Positions 5,248 through 64,000 of a stretch of 64,000 nucleotides of DNA are shown here, one piece after another; the stretch's first letter is position 1, and each line of letters starts with the position of its first letter. Source of the stretch: Candidatus Omnitrophota bacterium (GTDB taxonomy: Bacteria; Omnitrophota; Gorgyraeia; Gygaellales; JAQTUX01). The notes below the pieces were generated by a model that was given only the letters and a program-made list of their open reading frames with translations, searched no databases and was not told the origin of the DNA. The translations under genes were made by a program, and so were the position numbers. The DNA is taken from NCBI GenBank assembly GCA_028707125.1, contig JAQTUX010000002.1, positions 336,355 to 400,354 of the forward strand. Direction: 5' to 3'.

Positions 5248-6570
5248 CTATTTCCGCTCGCGTGCCATTTCCCGCTCTTTAACCGCCTGGGTTTCGGCCG
5301 CTGCCTGTTCAGGGGTTTTCCTGCCTAAGATGATCGCCTGGATCCCTTTGCTCCGGGCCTCGATCACCATTGAAAACTCCGATACGTCCCAGGCGGCGGG
5401 ATGAGCCGCCTGATCCATGCCCCGGGCAAACATCGCGTTGATCTCGGGCATTTTTGAGGCGCTCTGCCTGTTCGCCGGCAGGTTGTTAGTAGCGCCGGAT
5501 AAATAGGCCTGCTGCTGATCATCGGTAAGCCACCGCAGGAACTTTACCGCTTCTTCTTTATTCCTGGAACGGGCGTTGACCATAAACGAAGACCCTGCCC
5601 CGCCCCAGACAGCCATAGGGTGCTGATCACTGACAACAGGCGGCAGCATTGCCGCGTAATCAAGGACGGGATTCATACTTTTATAAACGTTCACGCACCA
5701 TGAGCCGTTAAAGGCGGATACCGCCTTCTCGGTGGCAAAAAGCTGCTCAGCGGTCTTATTCACCATAGTCACGATCCCTGTAGCCAAAATACCGGAATCC
5801 CGCATCTCCTTGAAAAGCGCGAACACCTTGAGCCAATCAGGGTCGGTATAAGGGACTTCCCCGCGTATCGTTGCCAGCACCTTATCCTTGCCCATAATAT
5901 TAAGGGCATAATTATTGGCAAAACAGTCGATCATCCACACCTCAACCCAGCCGGAGACAAAACCTTGCACGCCTTTATCTTTAAACCCGGATGAAGACAG
6001 TTTAGCGCCTATATTCAGAAACTCCTGAAACGTATCGGGAGGTTTAACCCCTAATTCCTTAAGCAGCTTCCTGTTATACACCATCTGGATAGTCATAATG
6101 TCTATGGGCACCCCGTAGATGCCCGCGGCCACTCCATAGGCATTGCCGTATCTGAATTCGTTGACCTCCAGCGCCTTCTCATAGAAACCGTTTCTCCAGG
6201 AGGCGTTATTCTCGTCCATGTAAGGCGTAAGCTCAAGAATGTGGCCCGCCTTAATAAAAGAGGCGAAATCTCTCTTTTCGCCTAATATCCCGAATATATC
6301 GGGAAGGTTTACCCCTTGCGCCGCGGCGCGCACCTTCTGGGAATACGCGTCTGAGGGGGCGTATAATTCAAATGCCACTTTGATGCCCGTCTGCGCCTCA
6401 TATCTCTTTGCCAGCTCCTCAAACACCGGCTTCCTGTCGGTCATCCAGTGCCAGACCGTCAGGGATCTGCCTTCCTGCTTCTTAACAGAGCAGCCCCAGG
6501 AACAAAAAACGGCCGCCAACGCTAAAATAGACAAAAAAATCCCTGTTTTACATCTTCGCATCCAAATCAT
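5248..6570 (-). CDS. Extracellular solute-binding protein (family 1, sugar ABC transporter) lipoprotein
   Basis: 440-aa ORF. The N-terminus MIWMRRCKTGIFLSILALAAVFCSWGCS carries a lipobox-like SWGC. The length and composition fit periplasmic sugar-binding proteins. The SD-like GAGGA sits about 8 nt upstream of the second in-frame ATG (6561), so the true start may be MRRCKT. Confidence 0.85.
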   Translation of the reverse strand: MIWMRRCKTGIFLSILALAAVFCSWGCSVKKQEGRSLTVWHWMTDRKPVFEELAKRYEAQTGIKVAFELYAPSDAYSQKVRAAAQGVNLPDIFGILGEKRDFASFIKAGHILELTPYMDENNASWRNGFYEKALEVNEFRYGNAYGVAAGIYGVPIDIMTIQMVYNRKLLKELGVKPPDTFQEFLNIGAKLSSSGFKDKGVQGFVSGWVEVWMIDCFANNYALNIMGKDKVLATIRGEVPYTDPDWLKVFALFKEMRDSGILATGIVTMVNKTAEQLFATEKAVSAFNGSWCVNVYKSMNPVLDYAAMLPPVVSDQHPMAVWGGAGSSFMVNARSRNKEEAVKFLRWLTDDQQQAYLSGATNNLPANRQSASKMPEINAMFARGMDQAAHPAAWDVSEFSMVIEARSKGIQAIILGRKTPEQAAAETQAVKEREMARERK

Positions 6571-6651: not shown

Positions 6652-7014
6652 TTAATTAATCCCCGCCCACCAGTTCCTGGCCAGCTCATCCCTGTGGTTT
6701 TCCCGCACATAGAGGAATATCTTCTCCCTGTCAAGGTCGCCTAACTTGGTAAACCTCAGGCCCCGCTGCTTGTTGAAGACCTCATCCCTGCCCCAGACGA
6801 CCTTTGCCTCGGCCACAATGGGTTCAAGATAAGGGAATGCAACGATCATTTCAACATCGCTGCCCACAGGCAGATCATCCCGGCAGGCGATACGGCAGCC
6901 GCCGAAACTCAAGTCCTCGAGGCGGCATTGCCTGCGCTCATCTGACCCGGGCAGGCAAAATTGCGCTTCCTTCGCCTCGAGCTCCCACCTCGCGCTCCTT
7001 CTTCTTTCCCGCAT
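6652..7014 (-). CDS. PilZ-domain protein (c-di-GMP receptor-like)
   Basis: 120-aa ORF. The N-terminal RRxxxR motif (MRERRRSARW) and the downstream DLSFGGC (D/NxSxxG) match the two c-di-GMP-binding motifs of PilZ domains at the expected spacing. Confidence 0.65.
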   Translation of the reverse strand: MRERRRSARWELEAKEAQFCLPGSDERRQCRLEDLSFGGCRIACRDDLPVGSDVEMIVAFPYLEPIVAEAKVVWGRDEVFNKQRGLRFTKLGDLDREKIFLYVRENHRDELARNWWAGIN

Positions 7015-7116: not shown

Positions 7117-10100
7117 TCAGTGCCGTCGTTCCTCTTCACTGTCCGCCCTGTTAACTGAAATCCGCAATATCCTTGCTACGGTATGCGCGCAATCCCTGCT
7201 TAACCCGAAATCAAAGAAGCAATCTGCAAGGCCGCGGTAGCCGAACATATCTCCTGGAATATAGCCAAACCCTGCGTTTAAGGCCTGCAGCACCTTCATC
7301 ATGCGCTGCATATTATCCAACTCAGCATACGGCTTTTTCTCTTCCCCGCTTAACGCGACACCGGATTCATTCAGGATCTCCAGGGCAATGGTAATGGCGC
7401 CCCTGTTGATCTCGGGAGCGTATCCGTTTTTGTATCTGCCTGCGATGCCGGCTAACCAATGTATTTTATTCTGCAGGTTTTCGGAGAGGGCGCTGATATC
7501 CGGCAGGCCCATACGCCCGCCGCGACGGGCATTGATAACCCCGTTGATCAACTTAAGGATATTTCTCTCTCTTTCTTCATCCCGGGCCTCCGCCTCTTTC
7601 TCTACAGCCTCACAGCCGCCGTCTCTAAGGATATCATCAAACCTGAAAAACGGCTCATAAAACATTTCATCCTGTTTCTTGCCGGCCGCGACAACCAACA
7701 GCACAACCGGAGTTAATACCGCCGACAAAATGAAAAATCCGGCTATGGTCCATTTTAACATATCCCACCAGCCCCACCCTCTTCCGAAGGCACCTGCTGC
7801 CTGCTCTGCCCCCAGGCAAATATCCGGAAACCCTAAGGCAAGAACGATCAACGCGAGCGCGCATGCAGCATATTCTAAGGATATTCTATTTTTTGCAGAT
7901 ATCTCATTCAAGCTCTCATAAAAATATCTAATTGAGGCGCCCCGGGGATCGGCTATAACTGCCGCCATTCCCATGTCCGCCCCGTCTGCCGTTAAATCTG
8001 CATAATCCCCTATGCCAATGGAAGCGAATTTCTCTGCCACCGCCGCCTTAAATCTATCGGCCGCGCCCTTCAATCCCTGTTGATCACCTCCGGATTTGTA
8101 ACCCGCGGCTAAGAAGTATAACTTGTAGTTACCCGGGGACAATTGGATCCTGTCCGCTATCTGCCTGAAATGCTCATGGAATTTAACATTTAAAGAATTG
8201 AAATGCCCTACTCCGCATTCGTTATTTTCTGTATCCATTAAAATGAATACTACGCAGTCAAAGGCGCCGAATGTCATCAGCGATTCATCCGACCATTTAA
8301 AATCATCCATGCCTACAGAATACCGCCCATCTCTGTATGTACCGCAAAACTCAAGCCATTGCGCCTCAGTCAATTCATTATCTATTATAATCTCTGCCTG
8401 CCGCTCATCCCCGCCCACCTCCCGGGTCGTGTCAAGGGGGCTGCTGGAGGCCTGCAACTTTTCAGCTAAGCGAGAAAAGCGGTCTATTCTGCAGCTTCTC
8501 GAATCGGCATTGCTGAACATGCTATCGATAAATCCATGCCAGTAAGAATCTATGCTTTTCTGGTCTTCTAAAGAATCTAAGAAGAGCGACTGGTTAGAAT
8601 CGGGAAATCTTATCGGCTGGGGCAGAGAAGATACTGGCTTTAATATGTTTATTAAATCCTCATTGCCATCCGACAACCCTTCTTTCGCGTGTACAATACG
8701 CTCCCAATCAATAACTACAAGCGGCACTCCCTGAAGGGCTGCCTTCAGAGCCGCGTCTACCGTCCCGCTCTCCCGCTTGCACTCAATAACTACGACAATA
8801 TCGCATAACGCGGTAGTGACGGCGTTTCTTGCAAGGGCAAGATCTATATCGGGAAGACAACGTCTCTGTTCCACCCAAACTATCGCACCGTTATTGATTA
8901 TTTGCTGTCTCGATGCTGGTTTCTTAAACACGCCTATCCCGCTTCCACTCCAGGGTTTGACGGCTATTGTGGTGCCTCCATTATCAATAGCTGCCTCATG
9001 GGCCGCTTCATCTATTCCGTAGGCACCGCCGGATACTACTGCAGCAGTAATACCCTTATTGGCCGCGTAACTGAAAGTAGAGCGCACCAATATGTCGGAC
9101 AAAAGACGACCGTCTGGGCTAGACTTAGTTGCGCTACCGATAATCCCTATGGTTAAATCCTGATTCAATACCGCCTTTACATCCCTGGATGAACTAACCA
9201 TTAAATGTGCCGGTGGAAAAACCTCGTCTATTTCGTAGGGGGTAGCGGGGATTCTTTTTAGTTTTCTGGCACGTATAACTTCAGGCCATGGATTCCGCAT
9301 AGCCGTTAAACATTCTGCTACTTCCATTAATCTCTCGACATCCATAAAACTAATTTCCCCAACCGGGCTGCTGGAGGCCGGTCCCGACATGGCTTTCATG
9401 GCTTCCCCCAAATATCGTATAGTCCTACGCGGATCAAACCTATCGCTGCCGTCAGGATCAACTCTTAAGCCGCTTTCGGCATCTATATTAAAAGGCAGTA
9501 CGGCATTTAAACCTGCCCTTATTTCCCGGATTTTTCTATCTACATTTGTATCATCTAACCCCCCTGCGACGCCTATGCTTAAACGCGGATACGCCTCTCT
9601 GATGGAATTGATCAATCCCGACGCGATCCCGCTATCTAATTCCTTGCCTGTGCCTAAACTTATGTCCAATAAGATCGCGTCTATATGCCCCTGATAAGCC
9701 TTCAGGTAACTAACTGCTTCTACTTTTACATTCGCGAATCGGTCTAATTGGACCTGAAGTATAACCTTGACTCCGATCTTTCTTATTGCATCCATCTGCG
9801 CGGCATCAATATCATCGCCAAATAAATTTATTTGAACCGCATCAGGCAATTGGTTTGATTCGTTTAATTGCCTGATAATATCGGTTAACATATTATCGCT
9901 TTTGGAGTGCTTGGAATAATGAACACAGCTCAGCAGGCCGGATCGCCTTAGTTTTTTCAAAATATTCTTCATTTCTTCAATATCAGTTATATAACGATTA
10001 GGATGCTTGCCAGACATGCTTTTTCCATCATCTACTATAAGAAGCCCTGCCATGGCTGAAACACCTTCAGTAGTTGCCTTGTGCAGTCCCTTCACTTTCG

Positions 10101-16100: not shown

Positions 16101-19100
16101 TTATGGGGAAGCCAATTTCCGGATTACCGATGGACAACGACCCCCCCATGGGGCTGATAGGTTTAGATAGCCACCATTTTTCGGAATCGGGAAACCCTCC
16201 TCTTCCAGAGGATTCAAAAGCCGTACCGGCGTCAACATATCTATTCCGACACACTTCCCCTAACGGCTTACCGCGGTAGTATCTGGATGGACCGCTACGC
16301 CTTTCCCCACCCACGCTGCTGGAGGCCTTAGGGCGCCTTCTTACAACCGCGCCTCCGTTCAACTCCGGTATGCCCGCGGCGACCTTACCAAGAACAGTAA
16401 AGAACTGTTCAACCTGCTCCTTAAAATAAGACAAATAAACCAAAACGGATTCGGGTTCTCTTATTTCCATAGAAACACACTTTGAGACAATCCTTTTCCT
16501 GAAAACGCTGATGAGCTCTAACTGGCTATCTTTCAAAGACAATATACCGGACAATATCTCAATAGGGCTGATCTCGCCCGATTTCTCAAGCAATAAATCT
16601 CCTTCCATCTGGCCTTCCGTATAAAATCTGTAGAGAAAATCATCCAATAGCGGCCTTATCTCTGAAGTGTCTATATGTAACAAACCTATTTTAAAATAAA
16701 ACGCTGTCAATAGATCCTTCAGCCAGTCATTATAAAAGCGGGTTATGTCACCGATCAATGATCTAAGGGATATCTCTCTATCCTGCCCTTCAGCCGGGCG
16801 AAAACTCTTTATATTATTTAACCATATGCATCCATTGCCACCCTGCCCTTTTATCGCGCCCGGGCTGCTGGCAGAGGCAATATCATTGATCCGCGCCAAA
16901 AGCTCCTTCCATCTATAATTTAATTCTTCCCTTGTTATCTTTATAATCGTTATCCCCAATATATCGGCTCGGGTCCCGGAACTTAAAATGTCGTTTATGA
17001 AGCCGCCGAAACAATCATCAAGCATAATTATGATTCTTATCGCTGCCTGATCCTGATCCGATAATACGATTTCCCTATTCCCAAGCAACCTTGATGATAG
17101 TAAATTGGAATCGCCTGTCCTCTTGCCCATAAGTGGGGAGCCCTTGCCGGGCCCCTCCTCTATCCTTAATAAAGACGCTGCGCAGCTGACAACCTGCCAG
17201 CGCGCGTCGCTTTCAACTAACTTTATTGCCAGGCGGCTCTTGCCGCTGCCGAAATCCCCCAGAAGCTTTACCCCAATACCGCCATTAAACAACAAAAGTT
17301 CTCCATTAACCCAATGCCATCCAACATTAGCCGCCCCGCCCCCCGCCTGCGGCGAGGCAGGCGCGCTGCTGGAGGCGCCTTGGAAAATAATTGACCCTGG
17401 CCTGCTCCATCCATCTTGCGCCCAAGCAGGGACGCATATACAAAAATCGCTAAATTCCCCCTGACAGGTAATTACGGCGCCTCCTTTAATACCTGACAAC
17501 ATCATATCGGCATCGCCCAATAAAAAGGCATCCCCCACATATTCCTGTAAAGCCATCCTGACCTGATAGAGCTGATTTACATCTATGGCGGTAAACGTCT
17601 TATTCATAAAGACTGCCGCCGACCCTCTTAAAGACGCCAATATACCATCGTCGCTCGCGTCACCCTGCCTGACAGAGAAACTACTCTGCGTCAATTGCCG
17701 ATGTTTATTCAAAGTATCAATGATACCGGCCGCTCTTTTCTCATACCCGGCCGCCTTTTCTTTAAAACCTTCGGTCAATAGATGGTCTCCTAGCGCGAAT
17801 GGCGATTGGCCGGAAAGCCGCTTTTGCGCTTCACTGACAAACGCTGGCGTCATCTCGATGCCATCTAACACGATATGCCACCGCTCCACATCTCCCCATC
17901 CCTTATTATTCTCAAATGCCTGGATTATTGCCGCGAGAATAGTGGCCATTTCTTCTCCAGTCGCGGGGCCGATGATTGACAAACGTATATAACTTTGGGC
18001 CATGCCCTGTGCCACTATTAACGGCAGAACCCGGCACTGAAAATATTCGATTTGCCGCCGATGCCTGCCAAGATACGAGAAACGGGCATCCGCGTGTACG
18101 GCGCCAAACCATTCCACATTCCAAGGATGCGAATTCCCCCATAAAGGTCGTTGGAACACGGGTGCATCCTTACCTGGTTCCCCGCCCCCCTCCTGGGTCG
18201 GGGCAGGCCCCGCCTTCGGCGGGACAAGCGGGCTGCTGGAGGCATGCTGCGAGCCGACCGGGTTGCTAGATGAGAATTCTTCACTATATGACTGCAACTC
18301 GTTTACCGGCGAGGAGCCAGAGGCAGAAGGACCGTACCCGGCTACTTCAAGCCGCGCCCTATCAAGGATTTCTATTATGCCTAATTTTTGCAATTCGCTT
18401 CCTGTCTCTTCTGGATCCTTAGCGTGTTGAAGGATAGCGGAAATCTGCCTATTTACAGCCGGGATCATAACTGTCTCAATCGGGATTAAACCGCTTCTAT
18501 AATCCTGTATGGACTGATGGATTACGCTATAGATCTTATCCGTTAATCTTAAGCCATATTGATACTTGAGCCTTAATATCCTTGTCAGCGTACTGAGGGT
18601 AAGGTTCCTTCCATTCCCCGCCATACTAACCTCGCCTTTTAAAAGAGCGGTCAAGCCCTCTGTGTGCCCATAAATATTACCCTCTGCGTCCAAGGCCATC
18701 ATCAGCAAGGTTGGGCCTGATTCCGCGAAGAGTTCTCTGGTCCGCGGGTCTACTACAATCCTGCGAAGTAAAACCTCTGTTCCGCTGTTCGTGATTCCCT
18801 GCATCGGACCTGCGTATTGAATTTCAACTCCGTTAAATTCGGCCTTTCTAGTCGCTCTGGCAGGACATAATAAATCATCCGCGCTGACCCCGAGGGCTTG
18901 TGAAATCCTGTCCAACACCCCCATGGCGTATCTGTGAATTCTATAATTATCTTGAGCCTCGTCACGGCTAAGCGCATTCCTCTCACTCTCATTGAAATCC
19001 ATCATGATGCTGACATCTATATCACCCAGTATCTCACCGAAGAAAATATCCCTCACCCCTCCCCCAACAACAACAATGTCCCTATCTAAGCCTTGGTCCT

Positions 19101-49100: not shown

Positions 49101-52100
49101 CACCTAAGGCATATGCTGCTGCATTGCGGACATCCCAGTCTCCATCTTTTAATGCCTCTATGAGGGCAGGGACGGCAGAGGGGTCGGCGATATTACATAA
49201 GGCATATGCTGCTGCAAAGCGGACACCCGGGCCCTCATCTTTTAATGCCTCTATGAGGGCAGGGACGGCAGAGGGGTCGCCGATTACACCTAAGGCCTCT
49301 GCTGCTTTATGGCGGACAGCCCAGTCTTCATCTTTTAATGCCTCTATTTTTAATGCCTCTATGAGGGCAGGGATAGCAGAGGGGTCGCCGATGTCACCTA
49401 AGGCCTCTGCTACTTTATGGCGGACAGCCCAGTCTTCATCTTTTAATGCCTCTGTAAGGGCAGGGATAGCAGAGGGGTCGCCGATGTCACCTAAGGCATA
49501 TGCTGCTTCGTAGCGGATATGCCGGTCTTCATCTTTTAATGCCTCTGTAAGGGCAGGGATAGCAGAGGGGTCGCCGATTACACCTAAGGCCTCTGCTACT
49601 TTATGGCGGACAGCCCAGTCTTCATCTTTTAATGCCTCTATGAGGGCAGGGACGGCAGGTTTGCCTATCTTAACCAATTGTGCTATGACTTCATCCGAGT
49701 CAGAAGAATTCCCTAAATTCCTCATCAATCTCCTTATCTTCTCCTCACTCACAGCAGTAGTCTCAGCCGTTACAGCTGTAATTGTAGTTAAGGAATGGGT
49801 ATTGATGGGTTGGGCAGATGTGATTGTAGATGTGGAAATTAGCAGGGTTACAGTAATTAGCAGGATAATCAGCGCCTTTTTGGCCAATTTCATCAGAGGC
49901 GGCCCATGTGTCTTAACTGCCCTCCAGGCAAGGTAGGCAAAGAGTACGCCTGCCGCCAAGATAAGTGTTTCCGCAGGATGGCTGACTATGAGCCCAAGTA
50001 TGGCTGCTGTGCTCACCGGCTCAAAGCTGCGCAGCTTGAAGTCGCCCTTGGGGAAGTGGGGCTTATGCTTCTTAGCGAACAGCTTTGCGACTCTGTCTTT
50101 TGTTCGTTTGAACCATTTGTAACCAGACCTTAGAAGTTTTATCAGGTAAGGTAATACCATTAATGCTGCTATTATGCCTATTGCATAGTGTAGGGGCTTT
50201 GATGTAGTGATGAAGGTGTAGGTACTCCTGAAGAAGCTGTCTGCGCCCTCTTTTAACCTGTCCACCTTTTCCTGGATGATCTCTGATAGAGGCACAGGCG
50301 TTGCTGTCGGTGTTGGTGTATTGACGGCTGTCGGGATAGCGACAGGGGTATTTGTCGGAGCCGGCTCAGGAGTGGAGGTTGCTGTCGGCTCAAGGGTGGG
50401 GGTATCGGTCGGCTCAGCGGTCGGGCTTGGTTTGAGGGTATTAGTTGGGGTTGGCTCAAGCGTTGCTGTCGGCTCAGGTACGAGCGTCAAAGTAGGCGCA
50501 TGAGTGGGGGTATCGGTCGGCTCAGCGGTCGGGCTTGGTTTGAAGGTATTAGTTGAGGTCGGTGTCGCTGTGAATGTCGGCTCAGGGACAGGGGTAAAAG
50601 TAGGCGTATGAGTGGGGGTGGGGATACTAGTTGGCGTCGCCGTAGAGGTCGGCGTGTGAGTGGGCGTAAAAGTAGGCGTATGAGTAGGCGTGGGCTGCGG
50701 CGTTGGGGTTATAATTTGAGTTTGAACAGAAGGCTCGTTTTGAATCTTCTTTATAGCTTCAGCGGCTGCGTCTCTAACGGACTCATCTTCATCATTCAGA
50801 AGTTCGTTAAGCACATTAAGCGCCCCTGAATCTCCGATCCTACCTAATGCATTGGCTGCGGAGCGACGGACACCCTCCTCTTTATCATTTCGTGCTGCTC
50901 CAATAAGGGCAGAAATGGCTCGTTTATCACCTACTACACCTAGAATATCTGCTGCATCTGCGCGGACAAAGGCGTCTTCCATTTCTCTAATAAAGTCGGC
51001 AAACAGACTTTTATGCTGTCTCAATATCCTGATAAGAGAGGGGACAGATCGCCTGTCCTTTATTTCCATCAATGCTTCAGACGCAGCTGAACGAAGCGTC
51101 CAGCCGCCTTCTTTTAATGCATTAATAAGTGGCTCTACTGCCTGCGCATCTTTAATTCTACCTAAGATCTTTGCTGCGTGTGAACGAATACTAAAAGACT
51201 GTTTTTTATCTCGTAATACTTTAATAAGATAGGGAACGGCCGGCTTACCAATGCTGACCAACTGTTCTCCGACCACTCCATACACACTATACTCAAGTCT
51301 CAATCTGCTTATTAGATTCTCTATTTCTTCCTCGCTGACATTGGCCGGCTGAAATGCTGTAAGTGGATCGGCTGCTTTCATTGCATCGGCGATTGCTTCG
51401 GGATATTTGCGGAGATTCTCGTAGGCAATGCCTCGGTTTCTATAGAAATCGGGTACTTTTGGGTTAATCTCTATGGCCTTAGTGTAATCAGCGATTGCTT
51501 CGGGGTATTTACGGAGTTTTATGTATATATATCCTCTATGGCTGTAGTAATCCGCGTCATTGGGCTCCAGCTTAATGGCTTCATTACAGGCCTCCAATGC
51601 CTTCTGGTAATCCTCTTGCTCACGGTATTGCGCGGCCTCACGGAAGTAGTCATTGGCTGACTTCTGCTGTTGGGAGATGATCGTTTGTTGCGATATAAAC
51701 GCGGGCATATTGCCGTATTGGGCGGGTGTGGATGCGGGTGTGGATGCCAGCAGGGTCATGATGATCAACAGGTTGATCAGCGCCTTCCTGGCGTATTGTA
51801 CTATCGGCGGGCCCCATGCCTTTATCGCCCTCCAGGCGAGGTAGGCAAAGAGTACGCCTGCCACAAAGATAAGTGTTTCTACAGGATGGCTGACTATGAG
51901 CCCAAGTATGGCTGCTGTGCTCACCGACTCAAAGCTGCGCAGCTTGAAGTCGCCCTTGGTGAAGCGGGACTTAGGAATGAGGCCTGCCGGGGATGCGGCC
52001 GCTTGTTCTGATGTCTTTTCTCCGCAGTATCTGCCCATCAGGCGCAGCAGGCCCTTTGCCTGCTCTTCAATATTGCCCTGGGTCATGCCCATGCGAAGAG

Positions 52101-55100
52101 CGTTATAAGCGGCCAGGCCGTAATTATCCGGGTGGCTCCTGCCGTAATAGTCATCGCAGGCGTCTTTGACCGCGCGCATAAACGACTCCCAGTTCGGCCA
52201 TATCTCGTTATCGCCCCAAGGCGTATTCTCATAATCAACCACGTATCCGGTGCCTCTTAATATCCTCTTTAACCCATCCCGCGCCATAGCCCTCAGGCGC
52301 TCAAACAGCACCCCGTCCAAGACCGCGATGGTCGGGGCGCCGTTCTGCTGAGAATTGGTTATGCTCGTCGGGCCGGCCTCTTTGCCTTTCTTTGAGATCA
52401 TCATGCCGAAATTGGCCCCCTGCTGAATGATCCAGGACGTCACCACATTGTGATCGTCAATGAAGAAAAGGTGGTAGCGCATGCGCGGGTCTATCGCGAG
52501 CAGCTGCTCGAACTTACGCTGCAGATTATAGCCCCACTCGTCGAACCTCCTGCCGCCGATAAGAAATACCGCCCCCCATTCTACTATAAGGTCCCTGTTG
52601 GCCGCGTCAAACATCCGGTCAAGGAACCAATCAAGGCATTTATACGGGACCATCCTGCGTACAGCCGCGATAAATGCCATATCGTAAATCCTGACGCCAA
52701 GGGCCCTGAGTTCCTCCTTTGTTATAAAGACCTTTCCGAACGCGCCGTCAAACAACTGGTCGATCAGGTATTCCTTCTGCTCCTGCTTTATCCGCAGTAA
52801 CTCCTTGATAAATTTATCCTTGTCTTCGGGCTTATGGTCCAGCGCCTCCAACAAAGCATCGGGTATGGCTACCTTAAGCCGTTTCATGTTGTTCTTAACC
52901 AGCTCCTGTATGCCTTCGCCCTGCCAGCGAGTTATGTCCGAGCCCTCGCTGTTGCCGAAGAGGTCGTCCTCAACCACCTTGCCGCTGAATTCAGCGAATA
53001 TCTCGTTGCGCAGGATCTCCGTATGGAGGGAAGAACACCCTGTGATAAAATCGCTCACCCTGCCGGTGATCCTCACCAAGTCTATGTATCCTGTTTTGTC
53101 GTGCCCTTTGGCCTTGACCATGGTATCCCTGAATTCTTCGGCTATCTTTAACACATCGAACATGTAGTCATTATAATTACGCATGCCGTCAAGGACGATG
53201 GTGTGATTGTAGTGATGCACGACTATATTGCTGAAGAACGGGTCTGTGTTATAGCCGTCGTTGACAACGCGGGGTATGGCCAGCGTAGTATTGGTTTCGC
53301 TGGTTGAGAAAATAATCCTCTTGCCTACAGGCGTTACCTTAGCGGTATCTATTTCAACCAGCGGACCGAAAGCGGTAAATCCAAGCGGCCTCCAGGACAC
53401 ATAATCTTTATCGCTCTCCGGCTCCCCTTTCCTTCCTGATTGTTCCTTGATGAAACGGAGCAGGACCCTGCGATATAACAATGTCTGCAGGGCGCGCATA
53501 TCATCGTCATCGGGATAGGCCTCTTCAAACACCTCCGGGCAATACATCCAGTATTCGTTCAGCTCGGATTCCGGATTGCAATACACCTCAACATCCACGC
53601 TGTTTTTACCGTTATAAGGCCTGGGCAATTCGATGCCGCCATATCTGGTTATCAACCTGAGACCGCCCCTTACGACCTCAATAAGCTGCGGGTCCACGAT
53701 ATCCTCTTTGAACCCCTTGATCTTTTTGGAGTAGAATATGCCCATAACGTTCAACTGTTTGCGCGCCGCGAACGGCCCGCCGTTATAACGCGAGAGCACC
53801 CTGTACCAGCCCCTTACCAGGTCGGGCTTGAAGCTGCCCAGCCCTCCGGACATAATAAGCTTGGCGATTATGCCCGCGCAACGCAGCGCCTTGCGCATAA
53901 ATCCCCTGGTGTGCTTTAATGTTATAATTAACGCCCGCAGAAACTTTATTGAAAACTCATATTCCATCTGCAGCACCCAGATATCGCTGTCTCCGATATT
54001 CTTTATCGCGTTCTGTAACTCATAATCCTTGAATGCCCTTGACCAGGCCGTATCAACAGCGTACCCCTTCATTTCATCCTGCCTGGCCTGGCCGCGGATA
54101 AGCAGGGAAACCCGGTGCTTTAATTCGGGATCATCCTCAAGTATCCTGATGAGTTTCCGGGCCCCTCGCAGGTTCGACTTGGCCTTGCCATAAACTTCAT
54201 TTAATCTCTCCAGCGTAAGCGCGAATCTACCCGCGCCCTCTTGCGGCAAGGTAAATATCTTTCCGGGTTGGCGCCCGGATGCCTCCGCGGAAGATGAAAC
54301 ATGATCCTCATCAAACAAAAGGCCTGTTGCGGCTGAAATAAATGGTTCCCCACCAGCCACGGAGAGGTTAACCACTGCCGCAACAGGCCATGAAGTTACA
54401 TATAGCCCGGCTGATCCAAACGATGATACCGGGCTGAAACCAAACCGCTGACCGGTTATTGACTCTATCGCGCTCTTAAACATCCGGAAGCTGCTCATCC
54501 CCGTGCCATCAATCCTGTCATTGATGACGAAGCGGTCAATCTTATCTGGATTATTCAGATATGCGTCCATGGCCGCGATGTTTTCTACCATCCGTATGGC
54601 AGCATTATCCTTGCCGGAGGTCATTTTACGAAGTATGCCGATATGCCGCACTCTTTCTTCCCGCCAATGTTTTAACGAGAACGGCAACATCAGTATGCTG
54701 GCTATATCCGCTATCTCTCTCTCCAGCATATTGAGCGTTTCAAGTGTCGTAGTATCAAATAACAACCGCTTTCCGCTGTTCTGCTGCCCAGCGAAGGCCT
54801 CTTTCTCCGCGGCATACTGCCTGCCGTGCCTTTCCCTGACCAGCATCAGTGCCCCGGATTGTTTTAAGGCATCAAATTCTTCCGCGCTGACCAGATGTTT
54901 ATGAGTGTCTCCGGACTTCTCATCTTGATGCGCCTGGCGGGTAGATATCTGGATGACCATGGCGAAATTATCGGGATGCGCTGCTATCAACCTGCGGCAG
55001 AAGGCCGTCTTTCCTACTCCCGAAGGCCCGATCACGGCTATTACCTTAGATGCGGCGGCGGATGAAGAGGCGCTGTTGTTCATCTCTACTTCTTCGCCTA

Positions 55101-58100
55101 TATAGTGAAGGCCGTATTTAATCTCTTCTTCGCTTAATTGGCTAAGGGGCCTGCTCAGCCCATATCTGCTATCGCCTTCTTTGCCGGAGCAAACTATATG
55201 CAGATCACAATAAAGCTTTTGTTGCTGGACGGAATATTCCAAGAACTGCATCCGGACATAAACACCATCTTTGCTATATCCCTTCCTTTCCATCACCCCT
55301 AACGCCTGTCCAAGATCAAGGCCGGTCTTACCTCTGATAACCCGTATCAGCACTCCTTTAAAATCGCCTGCCAATCCTTCAAGGGTCAAATCCTCTTTCC
55401 TGCCCTGGCCGGCCTGGAAAATGGCCTTAAGCAGAGGATGCGCGATCAAGGCGGCGTGGTTAAGATTCTCTAAAAACTCTGTCAAATCTACAAATATGCC
55501 TTTATTTCTATCAAATACGAATATTTTATTTATCCATTCCCGGGGCACATCCTGCCTGGTCTCAAATACGAGATTATCCATGCCGTTCCATTCGGGGTTA
55601 TTATTAATATTAACCTGCGCCACAACGGACAAGAAATCATCCTTGGGGTACTTGTGGAACTCACACGGCCAGAAAGCATAGTTGATCGCTTCAGCCGGCG
55701 AGACGTCAAACTCCATCAGCCATCTGGTGGCCTTCCAGATCTCAAGTCCATTAGCCGCGATCTCTTTCAGGTCACCAAGATGAAGACGCAGCCCCCTATA
55801 GGTAAATCTTTCCGGGTTATATTCCATACCGGATTTCTCAGCGATCTCACCACCGCGGTAATCACGCGGCACGCCCTTTTCATCAGCAAAGAAATAAGGC
55901 GCAAACAGCGTGTCCGGCTCGGAAGACACCCTCTCTTCAACCGATGGCGCACGGATCGCCTGAACGCTTCCTGCGGCACGGTAGGCGTTGTTTCTTTCCT
56001 TAGTATTCCACCTTCGGAATTGGACGATATAAATACCATTTTTTACCGCGAACTCTAAATTAATGGGGTATTTCAAACGGCTATACATAGCAGCCGCGAT
56101 ATGTATCAAACCGCGGACATCCTTTTCCGCGAGAGAAACGTCTGATCCGTTGATCCCAGTTCTGTCGGCTTCAAAAAAGTCCAATATATTATTAAAGAAA
56201 GAGTATTCCCAGCAATCCGCGTCCCTGTCTTCCTGCGTGCCGCCGGCCAGCCCCCTGGCGGCATTAATAAATACATTGCGGGAATCAACCAGTATAACGC
56301 CGGACGCTTCCGGGTCTATCTGGGCTTGCAAGGCGATCGCCATAGGATACTTATTCGTAGCGTCCACCGCGAAGTTGCTTGCGATGACTCCCAGCACCGC
56401 CTGAACCAGCCCATCAAAGTTTGATATGTTTGGAATGCTCCTGTAGGTTCCCGGCTGAGTGCCTGATATGTCTTCAACTTGATTTGAAGAACGCGCGATT
56501 GTAACATTACTGAAAAACTCCGCGTACTCTAACCACAAAGGCCTTAGGCGCTCCGCGACTAATTTTACTATCCTGTCTTGATACAGTAATCGTTCAATTG
56601 CCCTATACCTTTCTTCGTTACTTTCATTCTCTATGATTATTGACCCGATCTCATCGCCAAGGACCGCCATAATATCTTCATAAAGCCGGGTGGTAACAGC
56701 TATGGTGGGGACTAAGAAGAAATCCCAGAATATCCTGCGATGAAAATCATCTAATGCCGCCAGGGTGCTGGTCTTGCCTCCGATCAACTCCGGAAGCCAT
56801 ATCCCGCCTGCGAAGAAATCGATCCAGTATTGATGAGAGTTTTCTTCTTTTACGTTTTTCTGTTGCCTGTCAGATTCAGCTGCCAGATCCTTAAAGATGC
56901 CTCTTAGCTCCCGGTCATCCCTGCAAAGATGGAGCTTGATACAGTAGTCCATCTCCATCAACAAACCCCTCGCGGCAAGAAAATCATACGCGCCCCAGGT
57001 CTTCTTCGCCAATTTCATCCTGGCATCCTTAAGGACATCGTTTAATACCCTGTCCAACGCGCTGTTTCTCCCGTCGTTATATATATTGAATTTATCGATT
57101 ATTTCCCTGTCCGGATCCTGCCCCATTAACCCCGCTAAAGCGCCATATAACGAAAACTGCCTCTTAACCTCGCCATTGTGATGGAGCAGCTCCGGAAAAT
57201 TATTGATCCTGCTAAGAGCGTCTATATTCCTGTCCAGTAAATCGGTTAAATCCCTCGCCAGATCATAGAACACCGGCGCCAACAAAAATTCCAGGTCTTT
57301 TACCTTCTTGCCTTTAAGGCCGGCAAAAATAGCAAAAACCTCGGTATCATCGCCTTCTCGCAGGGCTTTATATAGCGAAAGGAATTTATCCCCTTGATTT
57401 GAAACCAGATATACCTCGCCCTTGTCTCCGTCTATCATGACCTTGTCTCGGCTATCCAACACAAAGGACCTCTTCTGAGGACATGCCTTTAACAGATAAG
57501 GGCGCCAGTTCACGGGCACATAAGAATATGTTAAGCTGTCAATCCTTGCGATCCGGCCGCTCGCGTCGGCAATAAATGGATTCGGGGACTCCTTACTGTT
57601 CAACACTTCTACGCGCGGTATCCCCAATACCCCCAGGGAAAGATTGATATGGCTGGCGATATTACCCCGGGTTTCTATTTGAATAATGCCCTTTACTCGA
57701 TCGCGATGTCTGGTTATCCAGGACAGCATCTTCTCATCAACATCATGGACCAATAAGACCACATCGCCCTTTTTGCCGAATTCCTTTACTGCGGGCCTGT
57801 CGTTCCCCGGGAGGATCTGCACCAATCTGCCGCTGGCAAAGCCGTCTGTAAGGCCCCAGCCCTGCAGTATGCGATGTATAGACACGGGTAACTCCGCCGG
57901 CCTTGTCTTTCGCGCTTCCCTAATGTCAATATCGCTCTGGGATGCCTTGTCCGGCCAGATATCTTTAACATGATGCCCTGCCTCGATTATCCTTTGTTTC
58001 AGATCAGAGGCGCTTACTGCCGAACTGCTTAAAGAAACCCCCAGTTCATATCTGTCCCTCAAGCGATTATAGAACCCTATTATCCTATACGGCTCGTCAA

Positions 58101-61100
58101 ACAGGTCTATTTCTATTATATAAAGCTCCCATCTGCCATACTTTCCGATATGGGAAAGGTTAGAATACGACCGCTTGTCTATGGCGTTAAGCAGATCACC
58201 CATTTCTCGCGCGGAATCCATATCAGAGTCAAGACACTGGTCAATGTAGTCAAAAATATCAAAACCCGGGTTATTCGCCAATTTCCCTTCTTTCGTAACA
58301 ACCTGGCGCGCCGCGATGGCTTGTAATACAGGATTTACAAAATAACGATTGAAAACCGCCTGATTCACCATAACCGGCATATATTCGGGATTTTCGTTGC
58401 CTTCTCCTAATGGCAGGTTGGGTATTGTGCCCAGGCCCGGCCCTAATCCGGTCAAAATGGCGTTCAACCATTCAATTGTAAAATATCTTATCGGCTCAAA
58501 GACCCCGCTTTGCCACATCTTCTGCCGCATATTGACCTGGCCCAATACGGCCCTATATATCATGTCGTTCGGGCTTATCCCCAGCTTCAACGCGGTTGAT
58601 AGGTCGCTGTGCTTAGGAATATCATACCAGCCCCCTGAGGCGTACTTGCCCCATTCAGTATCCAGCTCAACCAAGTCTTGTCCGTAGCATAAACCGGAAA
58701 CAAGATGCGTAAACCATAAAGATACCGACGAAGGATACATCCTGGCCCTTTGTTTCATCCGCGCGCCTAATTCTCCCAGAATGCATGTGCGCGGAATATT
58801 GCCCAGGTCTTCTCCGCCATCTGTTACCCCGCCGCCGCCGATAATCATACCTTCATAATTACCCCCGCTATAGTGCGGGCTGATGTTAAACTCTATATAA
58901 ACAGTGTGGGCGGCGCCTCGGTCCTTATAGTCCACACTCACGATATTCCTGTGCACGTATATATTCACAAAATCGCTCAGCCGGACAGAAACGGTATCCT
59001 TGCCTATCCCTAACGGCAGGTTCCTCAGGAGCGCCCTTAATACGGGAGAAATCTTGAACTGTTCAGGGTCAAACCCCAGATCGCAGACAGCGCAGGTCTC
59101 TTCATCCCTGATCTCCAGATTAAGGGTATCCAATAGCAGCCGCCTCACCTTTATCTCCACCTTGTTGCTTTTAGCCTTTAAATAGGCGCTATGCAGGAAA
59201 TTAAGCATCTGATTAAAATTGGACACCTCTCCAAGTTCCGGCTCGTTATTCCGCCAGCAAACCGGCCCCTGCAATAAGGCCTCCTTTCCGGATTTATCGG
59301 CCTGGAGAAACGCGCGCTCAAGCTGCCGCAGCTTTTCCTTAAACTGCCCAGCCGTATATTGAGAATTATCCGCAAGGCGCTCTAAAGAATCGGCGAGAAG
59401 CGCAAAATCAGAAAACAAGGCCTCTGGATCCGCCTCTGCTAAGGCGCCGCCTATTACTGCCTTCAACTTTTTATGCGTATCCTCAAAGCTTTCAATGCAG
59501 GGCCTCATGTCCTCTTCTATCTTAACGAAACTCAAATAATCCATCCTGAAATAAGGCCCCTCTAAAACCATTTTTAGAGAATAGCGGTATCCCTTCTCTT
59601 CAAAAGTCCGTTCTTGAGATAAACCGTCAAAAAGGCCCCCGAGCTCAACCGGGACCTCCAGGACAAAGTAATCGCGGACATCCTCCGGGAAACTTCGCGG
59701 GCGCGGAGGCGGCAGGTCTATTAAAGAGGCGCTGACCTTTAACATATATATTTTCCTTACATCGATTATTCTTCTTCTTAGTTCTTTCGGGCCGACAGCC
59801 CTTCCGGCTTTATTATAAATAGTGTGTAATTCGCAAAATTGGGTGGCGAAATCAAATTGAATCGCTGAAGAAGAACCGGCCTGTTCCTTATCTTCCCACC
59901 ACACTCCCATCTCTCTTAATTCCGCGTCTGTGTAGGTTGAAGTCACCTCAACGCCTCTTGCCGCCTCATCGGCAGGCATAAGGCGGGGCTCTGTGATAAG
60001 CGGGTCTTCATCCTTAAGGATAGCGGCTACCAGGCCGGTTATAGTGAGCTCCTGGCCTGAAGCGATCTGCTCCCGCGCCTTAAGGATGGCCCCTGATAAC
60101 ACCTTACCTATATTAAGGCCGTAGGTCCTGTCCTGGATATTGGGCGTGAGGCCGCGGATGATGTAGCCGGGGATATTCGGGCGTACGCCTGAGATAATGG
60201 CGTGTTTGACGTCTTCGCTTACCTTCTCTTCGCCAAATGCATCTTTGTCTCTAAATCCATTGGCTTTGAGTCCTTCTCTGAAGGCTGCCAGGGCCTGGTT
60301 TAGTTCAGGGTCAAATCGCGCCAACTCCGGAAGGTATTTGAGGGCGGCAACCACGTAGTTGGAGAAACCGGTAAGCTTGGGGTTGCCGTGGATATCGTAT
60401 TCCCTGACGGCATAGAAGGATGCCCTGGATACAGGGTCAAGCTCCAACAACTTGTAGAACAAGCTGTCCTTTGACTCTTGATGGCCCTTGCCTGTATCCT
60501 TAAAGTTGTAGCCCTCGCTCACATTTACATTAACGTAGAGACGCATCAGGCGCGTACCCACGGGCCGCAGGCAGGCATCATAGACGATCTCCTCTTCGGC
60601 CATGCGCCTGAGCGCTTCAATAAAGAAATATTTCAGATAAGAGGTCCTTTCGGGAATAAGGTTGATGATGCTGCCGCCTATCTGCTTAAGCATCAATTCT
60701 CTTCCGGGGATAGCCCTGTCGCGCTCGCTTATACGGGGGTCGCCGGTACCGATAACCACCCAGCCCCTGTTCCTGCCCATTTCCTCAAAGACAGACGGCT
60801 TGGTATGCCCATAGGCGCTGACACAGGTAGCTAAGAAGTCTCCTCTTTGATGCTCTATGGCGCTATCCGCGCCCAGCGGCTTGGCAAAGGTATCATTGTC
60901 AACGGTCTTAAGCGCCGCGAATACCGGAACAGGGATATTCCTCTCCTTAAGGAGATTGGCAAACTTTGCTGCCTGCCGGGCGTGGTCATCGCCGCCTATA
61001 AGCACCACTGCCGCGAAATCCCTGACGTTGGCAACGGCGTTCTCCTGGTTCTTATCGTCTAATTTCGCGCGGGAAGAACGGCTGATAATGGAAGGAAGAT

Positions 61101-64000: not shown

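Follow-up and report, generated by a model that had tools for sequence, protein, structure and literature searches.

Giant open reading frames are well documented in the Omnitrophota. The type example, from Velamenicoccus archaeovorus LiM, is 39,678 aa long with 42 transmembrane (TM) helices, and the study describing it proposes that giant proteins are cleaved and reports T2SS-like and class III signal-peptide genes near giant genes (West-Roberts 2023, bioRxiv 10.1101/2023.11.21.568195). Omnitrophota proteins of at least 10 kAA have also been described as 'multi-enzyme metabolic clusters', and TM helices or a signal peptide were reported in 94% of the 916 long proteins catalogued, the mean number of TM helices being 22 (Nielsen & Lui 2026, bioRxiv 10.64898/2026.06.07.730766). 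When other Omnitrophota giants were surveyed with TMHMM and DeepTMHMM, their enzyme domains were often placed outside, and two preprints surveying these proteins call the localisation of such domains hard to believe or unresolved. The gene analysed here is a member of this published class of membrane-anchored multi-enzyme proteins, for which the odd topology is already in print.

The 64-kb window (the whole stretch of DNA analysed) carries the giant gene and, downstream of it, a PilZ-domain gene and a set of sugar-uptake genes:

7117..63987, minus strand: giant ORF, 18,956 aa, no stop; residue i lies at window position 63987-3(i-1)
6652..7014, minus strand: PilZ-domain gene, directly downstream of the giant gene (Pfam E 2.2e-13)
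5248-6570, minus strand: solute-binding protein of the sugar-uptake genes
3715-5223, minus strand: MFS_2 transporter of the sugar-uptake genes
2835-3713 and 1982-2830, minus strand: two ABC permeases of the sugar-uptake genes
1-1985, minus strand: GH2-like gene running off the window, orthologue of the GH2 gene of the syntenic operon described below

The visible giant ORF is a single stop-free frame of 56,871 nt (18,956 codons), a run with a chance probability of (61/64)^18956 or about e^-910, and it cannot be a product of chance. All Pfam domain matches fall in its frame. An earlier sequence-only reading had placed a single polypeptide between 8700 and 61300; one polypeptide-coding frame is indeed present, the ORF being longer, and nearly every unit listed in that reading was recovered in it by Pfam, motifs or the TM scan. 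Only 13 nt precede the first ATG in the window, with no in-frame stop among them, and the 5' end may be cut, with the true start and any signal peptide lying beyond; the visible N-terminus has no hydrophobic signal. At least 15 distinct Pfam families occur along the protein, none of which dominates the entire chain, and about 60% of the chain is without annotation. In-frame SD+ATG sites inside the ORF are not enriched (3/418 in frame vs 13/547 and 4/125 in the other frames), and no tRNA genes or Rfam families were found anywhere in the 64-kb window.

The host belongs to the Omnitrophota: the flanking binding protein has homologues at 68-74% identity, and all those that are named come from Candidatus Omnitrophica/Omnitrophota. 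The same binding-protein/ABC/GH2 operon occurs in GCA_041643235.1, where it comes after a 41,759-aa gene and a PilZ gene; the product of this 41,759-aa gene has no real similarity to the giant protein in its C-terminal 3,041 aa. The order of giant gene, PilZ gene, binding protein with ABC importer and GH2 gene is that of published Omnitrophota giant-gene loci, the same downstream arrangement being described by West-Roberts (2023, bioRxiv 10.1101/2023.11.21.568195). The giants of that study and the gene analysed here come from the same phylum and have in common an ORF running for tens of kilobases without a stop, many TM helices, very divergent methyltransferase and other enzyme domains, essentially unique sequences, and pilZ, a binding-protein-dependent sugar importer and a glycoside hydrolase directly downstream. 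The published loci also have a T2SS/T4P-like secretion locus upstream of the giant gene, a side on which the window covers 13 nt here. The visible 18,956 aa fall below the cut of 30,000 aa (90,000 bp) used there for 'giant', although the 5' end possibly lies beyond the window. The divergent SecA_DEAD/SecA preprotein-binding domain carried by 'most' of those giants has no Pfam match at E<=0.01 along the whole chain (a very divergent copy could be missed), no C39 or S8 peptidase, common there near the N-terminus, matches in aa 1-900 even at E<=0.5, and NUDIX, dockerin and TSP3 domains were not detected in the giant protein. Most typed domains are predicted to be cytoplasmic here rather than extracellular.

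The class of Nielsen & Lui resembles the giant protein in the many distinct Pfam families that tile the chain, in its HEAT scaffolding, and in its kinase/phosphotransferase, methyltransferase and GNAT content; the dozens of TM helices and the lack of a signal peptide at the visible start, which may be cut, would fit their DeepTMHMM-based 'TM-only' architecture. Their catalogue gives topology per protein rather than per module, and mentions no internal prepilin signal, PBP-like unit or conserved linker repeat. NRPS/PKS synthases and RTX/Bap-type adhesins are likewise modular chains with conserved linkers, but carrier, condensation and ketosynthase domains are absent here, and the giant protein is polytopic in the membrane rather than a tandem-repeat adhesin.

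Four enzyme-like units lie in the first 4,023 residues:

60103..61293, minus strand: PFK-like domain, aa 899-1295 (Pfam PFK at aa 899-1080, 70 bits; weak C-terminal remnant)
55978..56790, minus strand: PPDK_N-like ATP-grasp, aa 2400-2670 (Pfam 43 bits, plus 17 bits for the C-terminal part)
54622..55047, minus strand: guanylate-kinase-like P-loop domain, aa 2981-3122 (Pfam Guanylate_kin 44.5 bits; GPSGVGKT; PDB 7luy, E 2.6e-7)
52276..53094, minus strand: glycogen-phosphorylase (GT35)-like fragments, aa 3632-3904 (Pfam E 1.5e-10 and 8e-5)

These Pfam scores confirm the PFK-like and guanylate-kinase-like P-loop domains named in the sequence-only reading; its PEP-utilising-like unit stands as a PPDK_N ATP-grasp, while the swivel domain (aa ~2075-2160) is a motif only (GNIASH..LGIP), without Pfam support. 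The PFK-like domain keeps the GGD, TxDND and MGR motifs, as read from an alignment to E. coli PfkA, and its sugar-binding C-terminal half is divergent. There are no strong TM calls in aa 1-4023, and we infer that this arm of about 4,000 aa is cytoplasmic, its side not being fixed by charge (a difference of 1 in the K+R optimisation described below).

The central part of the chain holds most of the TM helices and the envelope-type units:

50125..51918, minus strand: module A, aa 4024-4621: hydrophobic hairpin-like stretch, TM helix, TPR, HEAT, PT linker (aa 4416-4568), TM helix; large loop predicted outside
48484..50007, minus strand: module B, aa 4661-5168: HEAT_PBS tandem array and PT linker (aa 4994-5118); loop predicted outside
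47758..48240, minus strand: TPR array C, aa 5250-5410 (Pfam); predicted inside
47419..47703, minus strand: TM cluster, aa 5429-5523, leading into the PBP-like loop; two strong helices and one weak
45139..47028, minus strand: PBP-like unit, with GT51-like part aa 5654-5836 and transpeptidase-like part aa 5990-6283 (Pfam and motifs); predicted outside
43924..44664, minus strand: TM helix 6442-6460, 200-aa inside loop and 30-residue hydrophobic stretch 6659-6688 with central GG (TM scan)
42220..43314, minus strand: MT1, SAM-MTase-like, aa 6892-7256 (VGTGKG and NAPQ motifs; paralogue of MT2)
41068..41643, minus strand: modX, SAM-MTase-like, aa 7449-7640 (FDVGTGNG); predicted inside
39505..40446, minus strand: TM bundle, aa 7848-8161, including module Y (aa 7950-8160), a conserved 7-helix membrane domain
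38644..39420, minus strand: modZ, conserved soluble module, aa 8190-8448, N-terminal half possibly GNAT-like; predicted inside
37873..37962, minus strand: internal class III (prepilin-type) signal, aa 8676-8705 (Pfam N_methyl aa 8676-8700, 28.7 bits, cut-off 21.2)
37186..37872, minus strand: pilin-head-like loop, aa 8706-8915, closed by TM helix 8916-8934; predicted outside, with K/R clusters on both flanks
35713..35883, minus strand: TM hairpin, aa 9369-9425 (TM scan)
33964..34095, minus strand: Pol-beta-type nucleotidyltransferase, aa 9965-10008 (YGS..DLDI; Pfam at or below cut-off)
27997..32094, minus strand: weak TM helix or helices aa 10632-10706, loop aa 10707-11978 and strong anchor TM helix 11979-11997; loop predicted outside, with a weak GH57-like match

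Module B is a duplicate of module A (38-56% identity). The TPR and HEAT arrays of the giant protein score 314 bits in Pfam, and such repeats are limited to aa 4100-5410 and 14770-14826. The PT-linkers, PBP-like unit and prepilin-like signal of the sequence-only reading were all found in this region. Within the PBP-like unit, the Transgly match (aa 5654-5836) scores 36.8 bits and the Transpeptidase match (aa 6096-6283) 20.4 bits, under the Pfam cut-off of 22.1, with STSK5997, SIN6118 and KTG6274 all present in SxxK/SxN/K[TS]G order. The reference motifs of GT51 are EDxxFxxHxG, GxSTITQQ and RKxxE; here they read AENHRYW, GASTIPVQ and DKLRQ, the first Glu being retained and the remainder degenerate. 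Class A PBPs share the order of Transgly then Transpeptidase behind a TM helix, the motif triad and the predicted periplasmic location, and differ in their GT51 motifs (ED is EN here, and the position of the second catalytic Glu is Gln); the unit also has low scores, some 5,600 residues of a giant chain precede it, and a second TM helix closes it. K/R clusters lie on each of its cytoplasmic flanks.

MT1 and MT2 (aa 12728-13104) are paralogues (35-38% identical), both with GxGxG motifs, and the profile of modX matches PDB methyltransferases (E 1e-3). Each of the three is individually under the Pfam cut-off, and they answer to the three SAM methyltransferases named in the sequence-only reading, being MTase-like by motifs, paralogy and profile. 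A counterpart of modX also exists as a stand-alone protein of about 270 aa elsewhere. Module Y carries the motifs WFWPxTYxLW, GxADQ, QPPF and WAK and has an AF2 core pLDDT of about 82, with no PDB match by fold (best E 0.6) or by profile. The AF2 model of modZ (pLDDT 82.6, pTM 0.84) has GNAT acetyltransferases as its best Foldseek matches, and these are suggestive of a GNAT-like N-terminal half, although they are not significant (E 0.05 or worse); a profile search gave insignificant beta-lactamase matches only.

The class III signal is canonical. It reads KDAG followed by FSLIELLVAVAIILVV (in a second rendering, KDAG followed by FSLIELLVAVAIILVVATFAM), with G at -1, E at +5 and a hydrophobic helix of about 20 residues, the putative cleavage site lying between G8680 and F8681, far from the N-terminus. 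The motif occurs once in the giant protein, and no prepilin peptidase gene was found within the 64-kb window. Type IV pilins and T2SS pseudopilins share the G at -1, F at +1 and E at +5, the helix followed by RSYQ, the basic residues before the site and the head predicted outside. In those pilins, however, the signal lies within about 30 residues of the N-terminus rather than 8,680 residues from it, and the head here is followed by a further TM helix and 10,000 more residues.

The C-terminal arm again carries enzyme-like units:

24676..26037, minus strand: GNAT (aa 12651-12731) and MT2 (aa 12728-13104) (Pfam; paralogy to MT1)
22315..23259, minus strand: three weak winged-HTH repeats, aa 13577-13891 (Pfam)
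18976..19680, minus strand: small HEAT unit (aa 14770-14826) and CCA/poly(A)-polymerase-like nucleotidyltransferase motif (aa 14972-15004) (Pfam; motif)
8692..10983, minus strand: URO-D/MtaA-like aa 17669-17913, PRAI/TrpF-like aa 17945-18154 and DprA/SLOG-like aa 18272-18432 (Pfam 103, 23.8 and 68 bits)
7690..7884, minus strand: C-terminal TM hairpin, aa 18702-18766, then a 190-aa tail (TM scan)

Pfam recovers the URO-D-, TrpF- and SLOG-like domains noticed earlier, and the first of these also matches PDB 4ay7 (E 4e-14). The two nucleotidyltransferases noticed earlier are the Pol-beta-type one at aa 9965, with its GS..DLD motif intact, and the motif GGGVRD..GDIDV at aa 14972 (PolyA_pol E 0.066). 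A PDB sequence search with the whole chain is dominated by HEAT/TPR designs and adds only Gmk, MtaA and DprA. Among genome contigs, ordinary DprA relatives were the only matches to the C-terminal 1,000 aa, and metagenome scans with aa 8450-9450 and with the 30-nt linker consensus gave no match.

TM helices were scored by a 19-residue sum on the Hessa scale, which found about 80% of the helices of the window's own transporters (10/12, 5/6 and 5/6) and made no false call on the binding protein beyond its signal peptide. The giant protein has 22 strong candidate helices; permissive thresholds raise the number to 31-37, and the best model uses 36, so the earlier count of at least 40 hydrophobic helices was roughly right. 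The sequence-only reading had also seen a paradox in enzyme folds interleaved with envelope units, and this is not supported: strong TM calls are clustered, being confined to aa 4024-9430, aa 11979 and aa 18702/18748, and those ATP-, SAM- and acetyl-CoA-type folds that score significantly are found within aa 1-4023 and within aa 12002-18700, a stretch which has no strong TM calls either.

Sides were assigned by a home-made and crude positive-inside (K+R) optimisation in which domain identities were not used. The K+R bias was 46/110 counted charges in a first enumeration (vs 15/59 for the D+E control) and 67-70 in a later dynamic programme over 41 candidates; the same predictor left the orientation of the MFS transporter tied. 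Eight of the nine typed loops were placed on the side expected from their fold. Those predicted outside are the PT-linker/HEAT loops (PT-rich linkers are typical of exported proteins), the pilin head and the PBP-like unit; modX, modZ, the Pol-beta-type nucleotidyltransferase and the entire C-terminal enzyme block are predicted inside. The outside loops of the model range from 214 to 1,272 aa. Flipping any of the typed loops costs 8-14 charges, and the two duplicated pairs of membrane modules (aa 4006-4635/4642-5182 and 7644-7807/8485-8660) have the same topology within each pair. A model with all large loops inside was irreconcilable with the loop at aa 4620-4660 (13 K/R) and with the duplication of modules A and B. 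The first enumeration had put modX and modZ outside, a result reversed after addition of the helix at aa 8122-8136 (from the AF2 model) and four weak candidates; parity-based topology calls are fragile, since these five added helices changed the side of both modules.

The sole conflict is MT1. Exactly two strong TM helices, with no further candidate, separate MT1 from the PBP-like unit, and the two therefore come out on the same side unless the stretch 6659-6688 is re-entrant rather than a single crossing. Catalytic motifs are kept in the PFK, Gmk, transpeptidase, nucleotidyltransferase and MTase modules, and it can be argued from these motifs that the cofactor-dependent modules need the cytoplasm. 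Of the two outcomes that together would have refuted the earlier reading, one was obtained, the enzyme modules being predicted consistently on the same side; the hydrophobic stretches, in contrast, are real TM helices rather than buried cores, apart from a few weak stretches within the GNAT, PRAI and DprA folds. The unusual organisation noticed earlier, a single polypeptide crossing the membrane dozens of times with very large loops on both sides, is borne out as to the single frame, the dozens of helices and the loop sizes, the sides being those of a crude predictor. The positive-inside calculation around the TM clusters mostly reduces the topology paradox to a single module, MT1, with the side of the N-terminal block left unfixed.

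We favour, as the probable explanation of these observations, a membrane-anchored multi-enzyme chain of about 40 modules, whose enzyme arms are cytoplasmic and whose cell-wall, pilin and PT loops lie outside. Its modules, of ordinary size and joined by a conserved Ser/Pro/Gly linker, would be arranged in blocks. The N-terminal arm of about 4,000 aa would hold ATP-dependent sugar/nucleotide enzymes (PFK-like, PPDK ATP-grasp, Gmk-like, phosphorylase-like). At aa 4024-9430 about 30 TM helices would then carry several large loops to the far side of the inner membrane, namely a PBP-like unit that may be peptidoglycan-binding or an acyl-serine unit, a pilin-like head and, on PT-rich stalks, two TPR/HEAT scaffolds; the MTase-like and GNAT-like loops would remain inside. 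Another loop on the outside, about 1,270 aa long (aa 10707-11978), would separate this block from the C-terminal arm of some 6,700 aa. TM helix 11979 and the terminal TM hairpin would anchor the arm, whose GNAT, MTase, HTH, nucleotidyltransferase, URO-D/MtaA-like, TrpF-like and DprA/SLOG-like modules would face the cytoplasm. The chain presumably stays in one piece and would work as an envelope-spanning scaffold, linking an outward cell-wall/attachment unit to inward metabolic enzymes beside a sugar importer.

The modules are joined by a conserved linker, GASSS[AP]..GGG (in fuller form GASSS[AP]..P.Q.GGG), whose core SSS[SAPV] occurs 39 times along the entire protein, against 1.6 expected, at domain edges and on average about 480 aa apart. 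In the C-terminal half the linker is also a DNA repeat:

8402..26256, minus strand: 53-nt direct repeat, twelve interspersed copies (for example 14090-14142, 17327-17379 and 26204-26256), encoding the linker GASSSAPAPSQAGGGAA

Copies are up to 92% identical to each other though the adjoining modules are unrelated, and no RNA structure was found in the repeat (z-scores -0.9 to +1.3). Tentatively, the linker could be a functional joint, either a recombination hot spot for in-frame module capture or a precursor cleavage site yielding about 40 ordinary proteins, together with a functional prepilin-peptidase site at G8680/F8681; we regard this as possible but doubtful.

A much less likely reading of the whole chain, and the strongest rival to the membrane-anchored one, is that of a processed polyprotein, cut at the GASSS[AP] linkers and/or between G8680 and F8681 into proteins of ordinary size for which the full topology is not needed. 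It draws on the number, placement and spacing of the SSS[SAPV] junctions, on the textbook class III signal on the predicted cytoplasmic face, and on the earlier proposal of giant-protein cleavage, with T2SS-like and class III genes nearby (West-Roberts 2023, bioRxiv 10.1101/2023.11.21.568195). Against this, Pfam finds no protease domain in the whole chain, the pilin-like head is followed by a TM helix, unlike in extractable pilins, and the linker context varies outside the SSS core. Ser/Pro/Gly linkers are moreover common in uncleaved multidomain proteins, and the DNA-level identity of the 53-nt copies suggests spread within the gene rather than selection of a cleavage motif.

Less probable still, and unlikely, is a 'coat' or effector lying mostly outside the cell, a role proposed for Velamenicoccus archaeovorus, with an unseen N-terminal signal and modules that act outside or are degenerate scaffolds. 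The possibly truncated 5' end, the N-terminal block left free by charge, the literature placing many giant-protein domains outside and the neighbouring glycoside hydrolase and sugar importer would all suit it. However, the visible N-terminus has no hydrophobic signal, modules dependent on ATP, SAM or NTPs keep intact P-loop, GGD/TxDND, GxGxG and GS..DxD motifs, and placing the 6,700-aa C-terminal block outside costs 14 charges, TM helix 11979 having 5 K/R on its C-terminal side. Genes fused by misassembly or sequencing error, or a decaying pseudogene, are very improbable: the HEAT array and linker repeat could mislead an assembler, but 56.9 kb are stop-free in the one frame that holds all domain matches, a 41,759-aa gene occupies the same locus in a related genome, and giant ORFs are an established feature of the phylum.

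The giants of the Omnitrophota are among the largest predicted proteins known. The membrane-anchored chain favoured here offers one concrete case, in which cofactor-dependent modules would lie in two arms free of strong TM helices and in inside loops, with cell-wall, pilin and PT-stalked modules outside, and in which only MT1 is an exception, one that hinges on a single hydrophobic stretch of 30 residues. The linker with its DNA repeat and the internal prepilin signal are handles on how giant genes are assembled and whether their products are cleaved. If the linker were a recombination hot spot, it would explain the growth of mosaic giants; functional cleavage at G8680/F8681 would connect the last 10,276 residues with a pilus or a T2SS-like machine, and processing at both the linker and the prepilin site would remove the topology problem altogether.

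Cytoplasm-type folds, envelope-type units and TM helices do occur together in one ORF, as the sequence-only reading had observed. The giant protein is encoded by a single minus-strand ORF of 18,956 codons (7117..63987 of the window), a stop-free stretch that cannot have originated by chance; as the 13 nt left upstream of it hold no in-frame stop, its true start may lie beyond the window. All Pfam domain matches are in the frame of this ORF, and the units previously listed for it are largely borne out by Pfam and motif matches.

Pfam matches in the giant protein (minus strand, within 7117..63987)
PFK, 70 bits
PPDK_N ATP-grasp, 43 bits
Guanylate kinase, 44.5 bits
Glycogen-phosphorylase fragments
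TPR and HEAT arrays
Transgly (36.8 bits), followed by a sub-threshold Transpeptidase
N_methyl prepilin motif, 28.7 bits
Pol-beta nucleotidyltransferase
GNAT; weak HTH repeats
URO-D, 103 bits
PRAI, 23.8 bits
DprA/SLOG, 68 bits

The three SAM methyltransferases that had been proposed correspond to MT1 (aa 6892-7256), its paralogue MT2 (aa 12728-13104, 35-38% identity) and modX (aa 7449-7640), which carries FDVGTGNG and whose profile gives weak but consistent matches to PDB methyltransferases. The two nucleotidyltransferases are likewise present, one being of the Pol-beta type found by Pfam and the other recognised at aa 14972 by a motif of the CCA/poly(A)-polymerase type. The transpeptidase-like part of the PBP-like unit has STSK, SIN and KTG in order; its GT51 motifs are partly degenerate.

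Two PT-rich linkers (PTPTHTPT...) of 125-150 residues each lie at window positions 48634-49008 and 50284-50742, and because their minus-strand codons are C-rich the GC skew flips locally to positive at 48-52 kb. The HEAT_PBS tandem array at 49009-49658 is made of 6.8 copies of a 93-nt (31-aa) unit, with sub-repeats up to 95% identical; this similarity suggests a recent expansion, and the array is a possible weak spot in the assembly. A short fragment from the end of the phosphorylase-like region (KKGKEAGPTSITNSQQNGAPT ... MGMTQGNIEEQAKGL, aa 3870-3985) recurs after the PBP-like unit (aa 6363-6400). The two copies (~window 52033-52377 and 44788-44901) are 90% identical across 21 aa and 57% identical across 35 aa, a vestige of copying within the gene. 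Another Walker-A P-loop, GDFGSGKS, is found at aa 15577-15584 (window 17236-17259), where the C-terminal arm otherwise has no annotation. Some 60% of the whole chain is likewise unannotated, the predicted outside loop at aa 10707-11978 included.

TM helices were called from 19-residue sums on the Hessa biological hydrophobicity scale, with proteins encoded in the window itself as calibration. With the threshold set to 4, this recovers 10/12 TM helices of the MFS transporter, 5/6 of each permease and only the signal peptide of the binding protein. The caller is crude and misses about one TM helix in five. The giant protein has 22 strong calls (sum <= 2), all in aa 4024-9430 except one at aa 11979 and a pair at aa 18702/18748, and none in aa 1-4023 or aa 12002-18700. 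The weak calls in these two arms represent buried core elements of the GNAT, PRAI and DprA folds. Given this confinement of the strong calls, the chain is built in blocks and runs from a kinase arm through a membrane block to a C-terminal enzyme arm of great length. These blocks are robust despite the caller's limits; individual parities in aa 6600-8650 are not.

To assign sides, topologies were enumerated so as to maximise K+R on one side, leaving domain identities out. The first enumeration gave a bias of 46/110 charges, compared with 15/59 for the D+E control. In a second pass, a helix at aa 8122-8136 (taken from the AlphaFold model of the membrane domain module Y, aa 7950-8160) and four more weak candidates were added, and a dynamic programme over 41 TM candidates reached a best bias of 67-70 with 36 TM helices. 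One added helix flipped two loop assignments between passes, and applied to the window's MFS transporter the method left the orientation tied.

Predicted sides in the giant protein, with the cost of a swap
Two HEAT/PT-linker loops: outside, 9 and 12 charges
TPR-C: inside, 12 charges
PBP-like unit: outside, 8-11 charges
modX: inside, 9 charges
modZ (soluble module, aa 8190-8448): inside, 9 charges
Pilin head: outside, 10 charges
Pol-beta NTase: inside, 8 charges
Loop aa 10707-11978: outside, 14 charges
aa 12002-18701: inside, 14 charges

This layout agrees with the K/R clusters on both cytoplasmic flanks of the PBP loop and of the pilin head, with the identical topology of the duplicated membrane modules within each of both pairs, and with the structural neighbours of modZ, whose fold is predicted with high confidence (pLDDT 82.6) and whose best neighbours, though not significant, are GNAT acetyltransferases. 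Within the outside loop at aa 10707-11978 there is a weak GH57-like match (E 0.024; IWIWNAEG motif) at aa 10937-11020 (~window 30928-31179), which if real would be an outward-facing carbohydrate-active module.

The positive-inside analysis suggested by the sequence-only reading yields sides that fit the fold type in 8/9 typed loops, the sole conflict being MT1. Between MT1 and the PBP-like unit there are exactly two strong TM helices (6442 and 6659-6688) and no further TM candidates, and this places the two modules on the same side. The stretch 6659-6688 is 30 residues long with GG at its centre; if it were a re-entrant hairpin, MT1 would move inside free of charge cost (+3). For the N-terminal arm, charge does not decide between the two sides (a difference of 1). 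We place this arm inside, as it lacks both a strong TM helix and a signal peptide at its visible start and keeps ATP-binding and catalytic motifs. On this model the cytoplasmic share of the chain would be roughly 75%, with 18-21% lying outside and 4% within the membrane. The interpretation given in the sequence-only reading is partly supported. The organisation is unusual and worth mapping, as had been claimed, but the block structure and the eight matching loops argue against a paradoxical interleaving: for this protein the paradox largely gives way to a conventional in/out pattern, and what remains is one local conflict (MT1) and one arm whose side charge does not fix.

No close relative of the giant protein was found in the protein, genome-contig and metagenome collections searched. 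The genes downstream of it, in order, are PilZ, binding protein, MFS transporter, two ABC permeases and a GH2-like gene.

Genes at the ends of this order
6652-7014, minus strand, PilZ-domain gene of 120 aa (E 2e-13), flanked by the genes for the giant protein and the sugar-binding protein
1-1985, minus strand, GH2-like glycoside hydrolase gene running past the window start, 74% and 58% identical to its counterparts in two syntenic loci (L003 and L004)

Two plus-strand ORFs antisense within the GH2-like gene (486-944 and 1209-1727) have no Pfam match and are probably spurious. The solute-binding protein has hundreds of homologues at 68-74% identity, and all those bearing names are from Candidatus Omnitrophica/Omnitrophota; a binding protein 97% identical to it (P0001) is present in an SRA run. 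In the related assembly GCA_041643235.1, the same operon is directly preceded by a gene for a protein of 41,759 aa and by one for PilZ. The order PilZ, binding protein, ABC, glycoside hydrolase has also been described downstream of Omnitrophota giant genes (West-Roberts et al. 2023, bioRxiv 10.1101/2023.11.21.568195), and a 'multi-enzyme metabolic cluster' class has been defined for proteins of at least 10 kAA, with TM helices or a signal peptide in 94% of the long proteins catalogued (Nielsen & Lui 2026, bioRxiv 10.64898/2026.06.07.730766). Given this match in locus and class, the giant protein belongs to a described class of Omnitrophota giant/multi-enzyme proteins, of which it is a member with a unique sequence. 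It shows no relationship to the last 3,041 residues of the syntenic 41,759-aa protein, as would be expected from the poor sequence conservation that has been reported.

When aa 7340-8540, covering modX, module Y and modZ, were used in a full HMMER scan of 1.8 billion representatives, only 57 relatives were retrieved, and every one of them carries just one of the three modules. Some are stand-alone proteins of ~270 aa (~275 aa for module Y), others contig-limited fragments of 3-8 kAA annotated by enzyme domains of their own (for example HAD phosphatase, PRPP-synthetase-like, SelD, ROK, pseudouridine synthase). Module Y (window 39505-40137) is a conserved 7-helix membrane domain with the motifs WFWPxTYxLW, GxADQ, QPPF and WAK, for which there is no Pfam match and no PDB match by sequence or fold.

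The prepilin signal lies at aa 8676-8705 (window 37873-37962), where KDAG|FSLIELLVAVAIILVV (starting FSLIELL) is a textbook class III signal with its putative cleavage site at G8680|F8681. The motif occurs once in the whole chain, 8,680 residues in. Its basic leader is predicted on the cytoplasmic face, the working side of prepilin peptidase, and the 210-residue 'head' that follows is predicted outside, closed by TM 8916. Next to giant genes, T2SS-like loci have been reported, as have genes whose products carry class III signal peptides (West-Roberts et al. 2023), and this makes cleavage or docking at the putative site plausible. The relative P0125 has a looser class III-like signal at residue 229, and no Pfam N_methyl match at E<=0.001 is listed for it.

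A linker with the consensus GASSS[AP].A.P.Q.GGG recurs along the chain. SSS[SAPV] is found 39 times between aa 107 and aa 18514, compared with 1.6 in shuffles (maximum 6), at a mean spacing of ~480 aa and at the edges of PFK, Gmk, modX, NTase, TM 11979, GNAT, MT2, URO-D, PRAI and DprA. At the nucleotide level, the 12-mer TCCAGCAGCSCG has 13 copies, all on the coding strand (0.04 expected), and a 53-nt interspersed direct repeat has 12 copies in window 8402-26256 (e.g. 14090-14142, 17327-17379, 26204-26256), up to 92% identical with unrelated modules in between. The 53-nt repeat folds as RNA no better than shuffles and was not found in the other loci compared or in JGI metagenome contigs; the relative P0127 has SSSP[VILM] 8 times (0.18 expected). 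Such a linker goes unmentioned in both Omnitrophota giant-gene preprints (West-Roberts et al. 2023; Nielsen & Lui 2026). Three readings are possible: it may simply be a flexible linker that recombination within the gene has spread, it may be a hot spot at which modules are captured in frame, or the protein may be processed there. Together with the internal prepilin site, this linker repeat is the part of the giant protein best worth pursuing.
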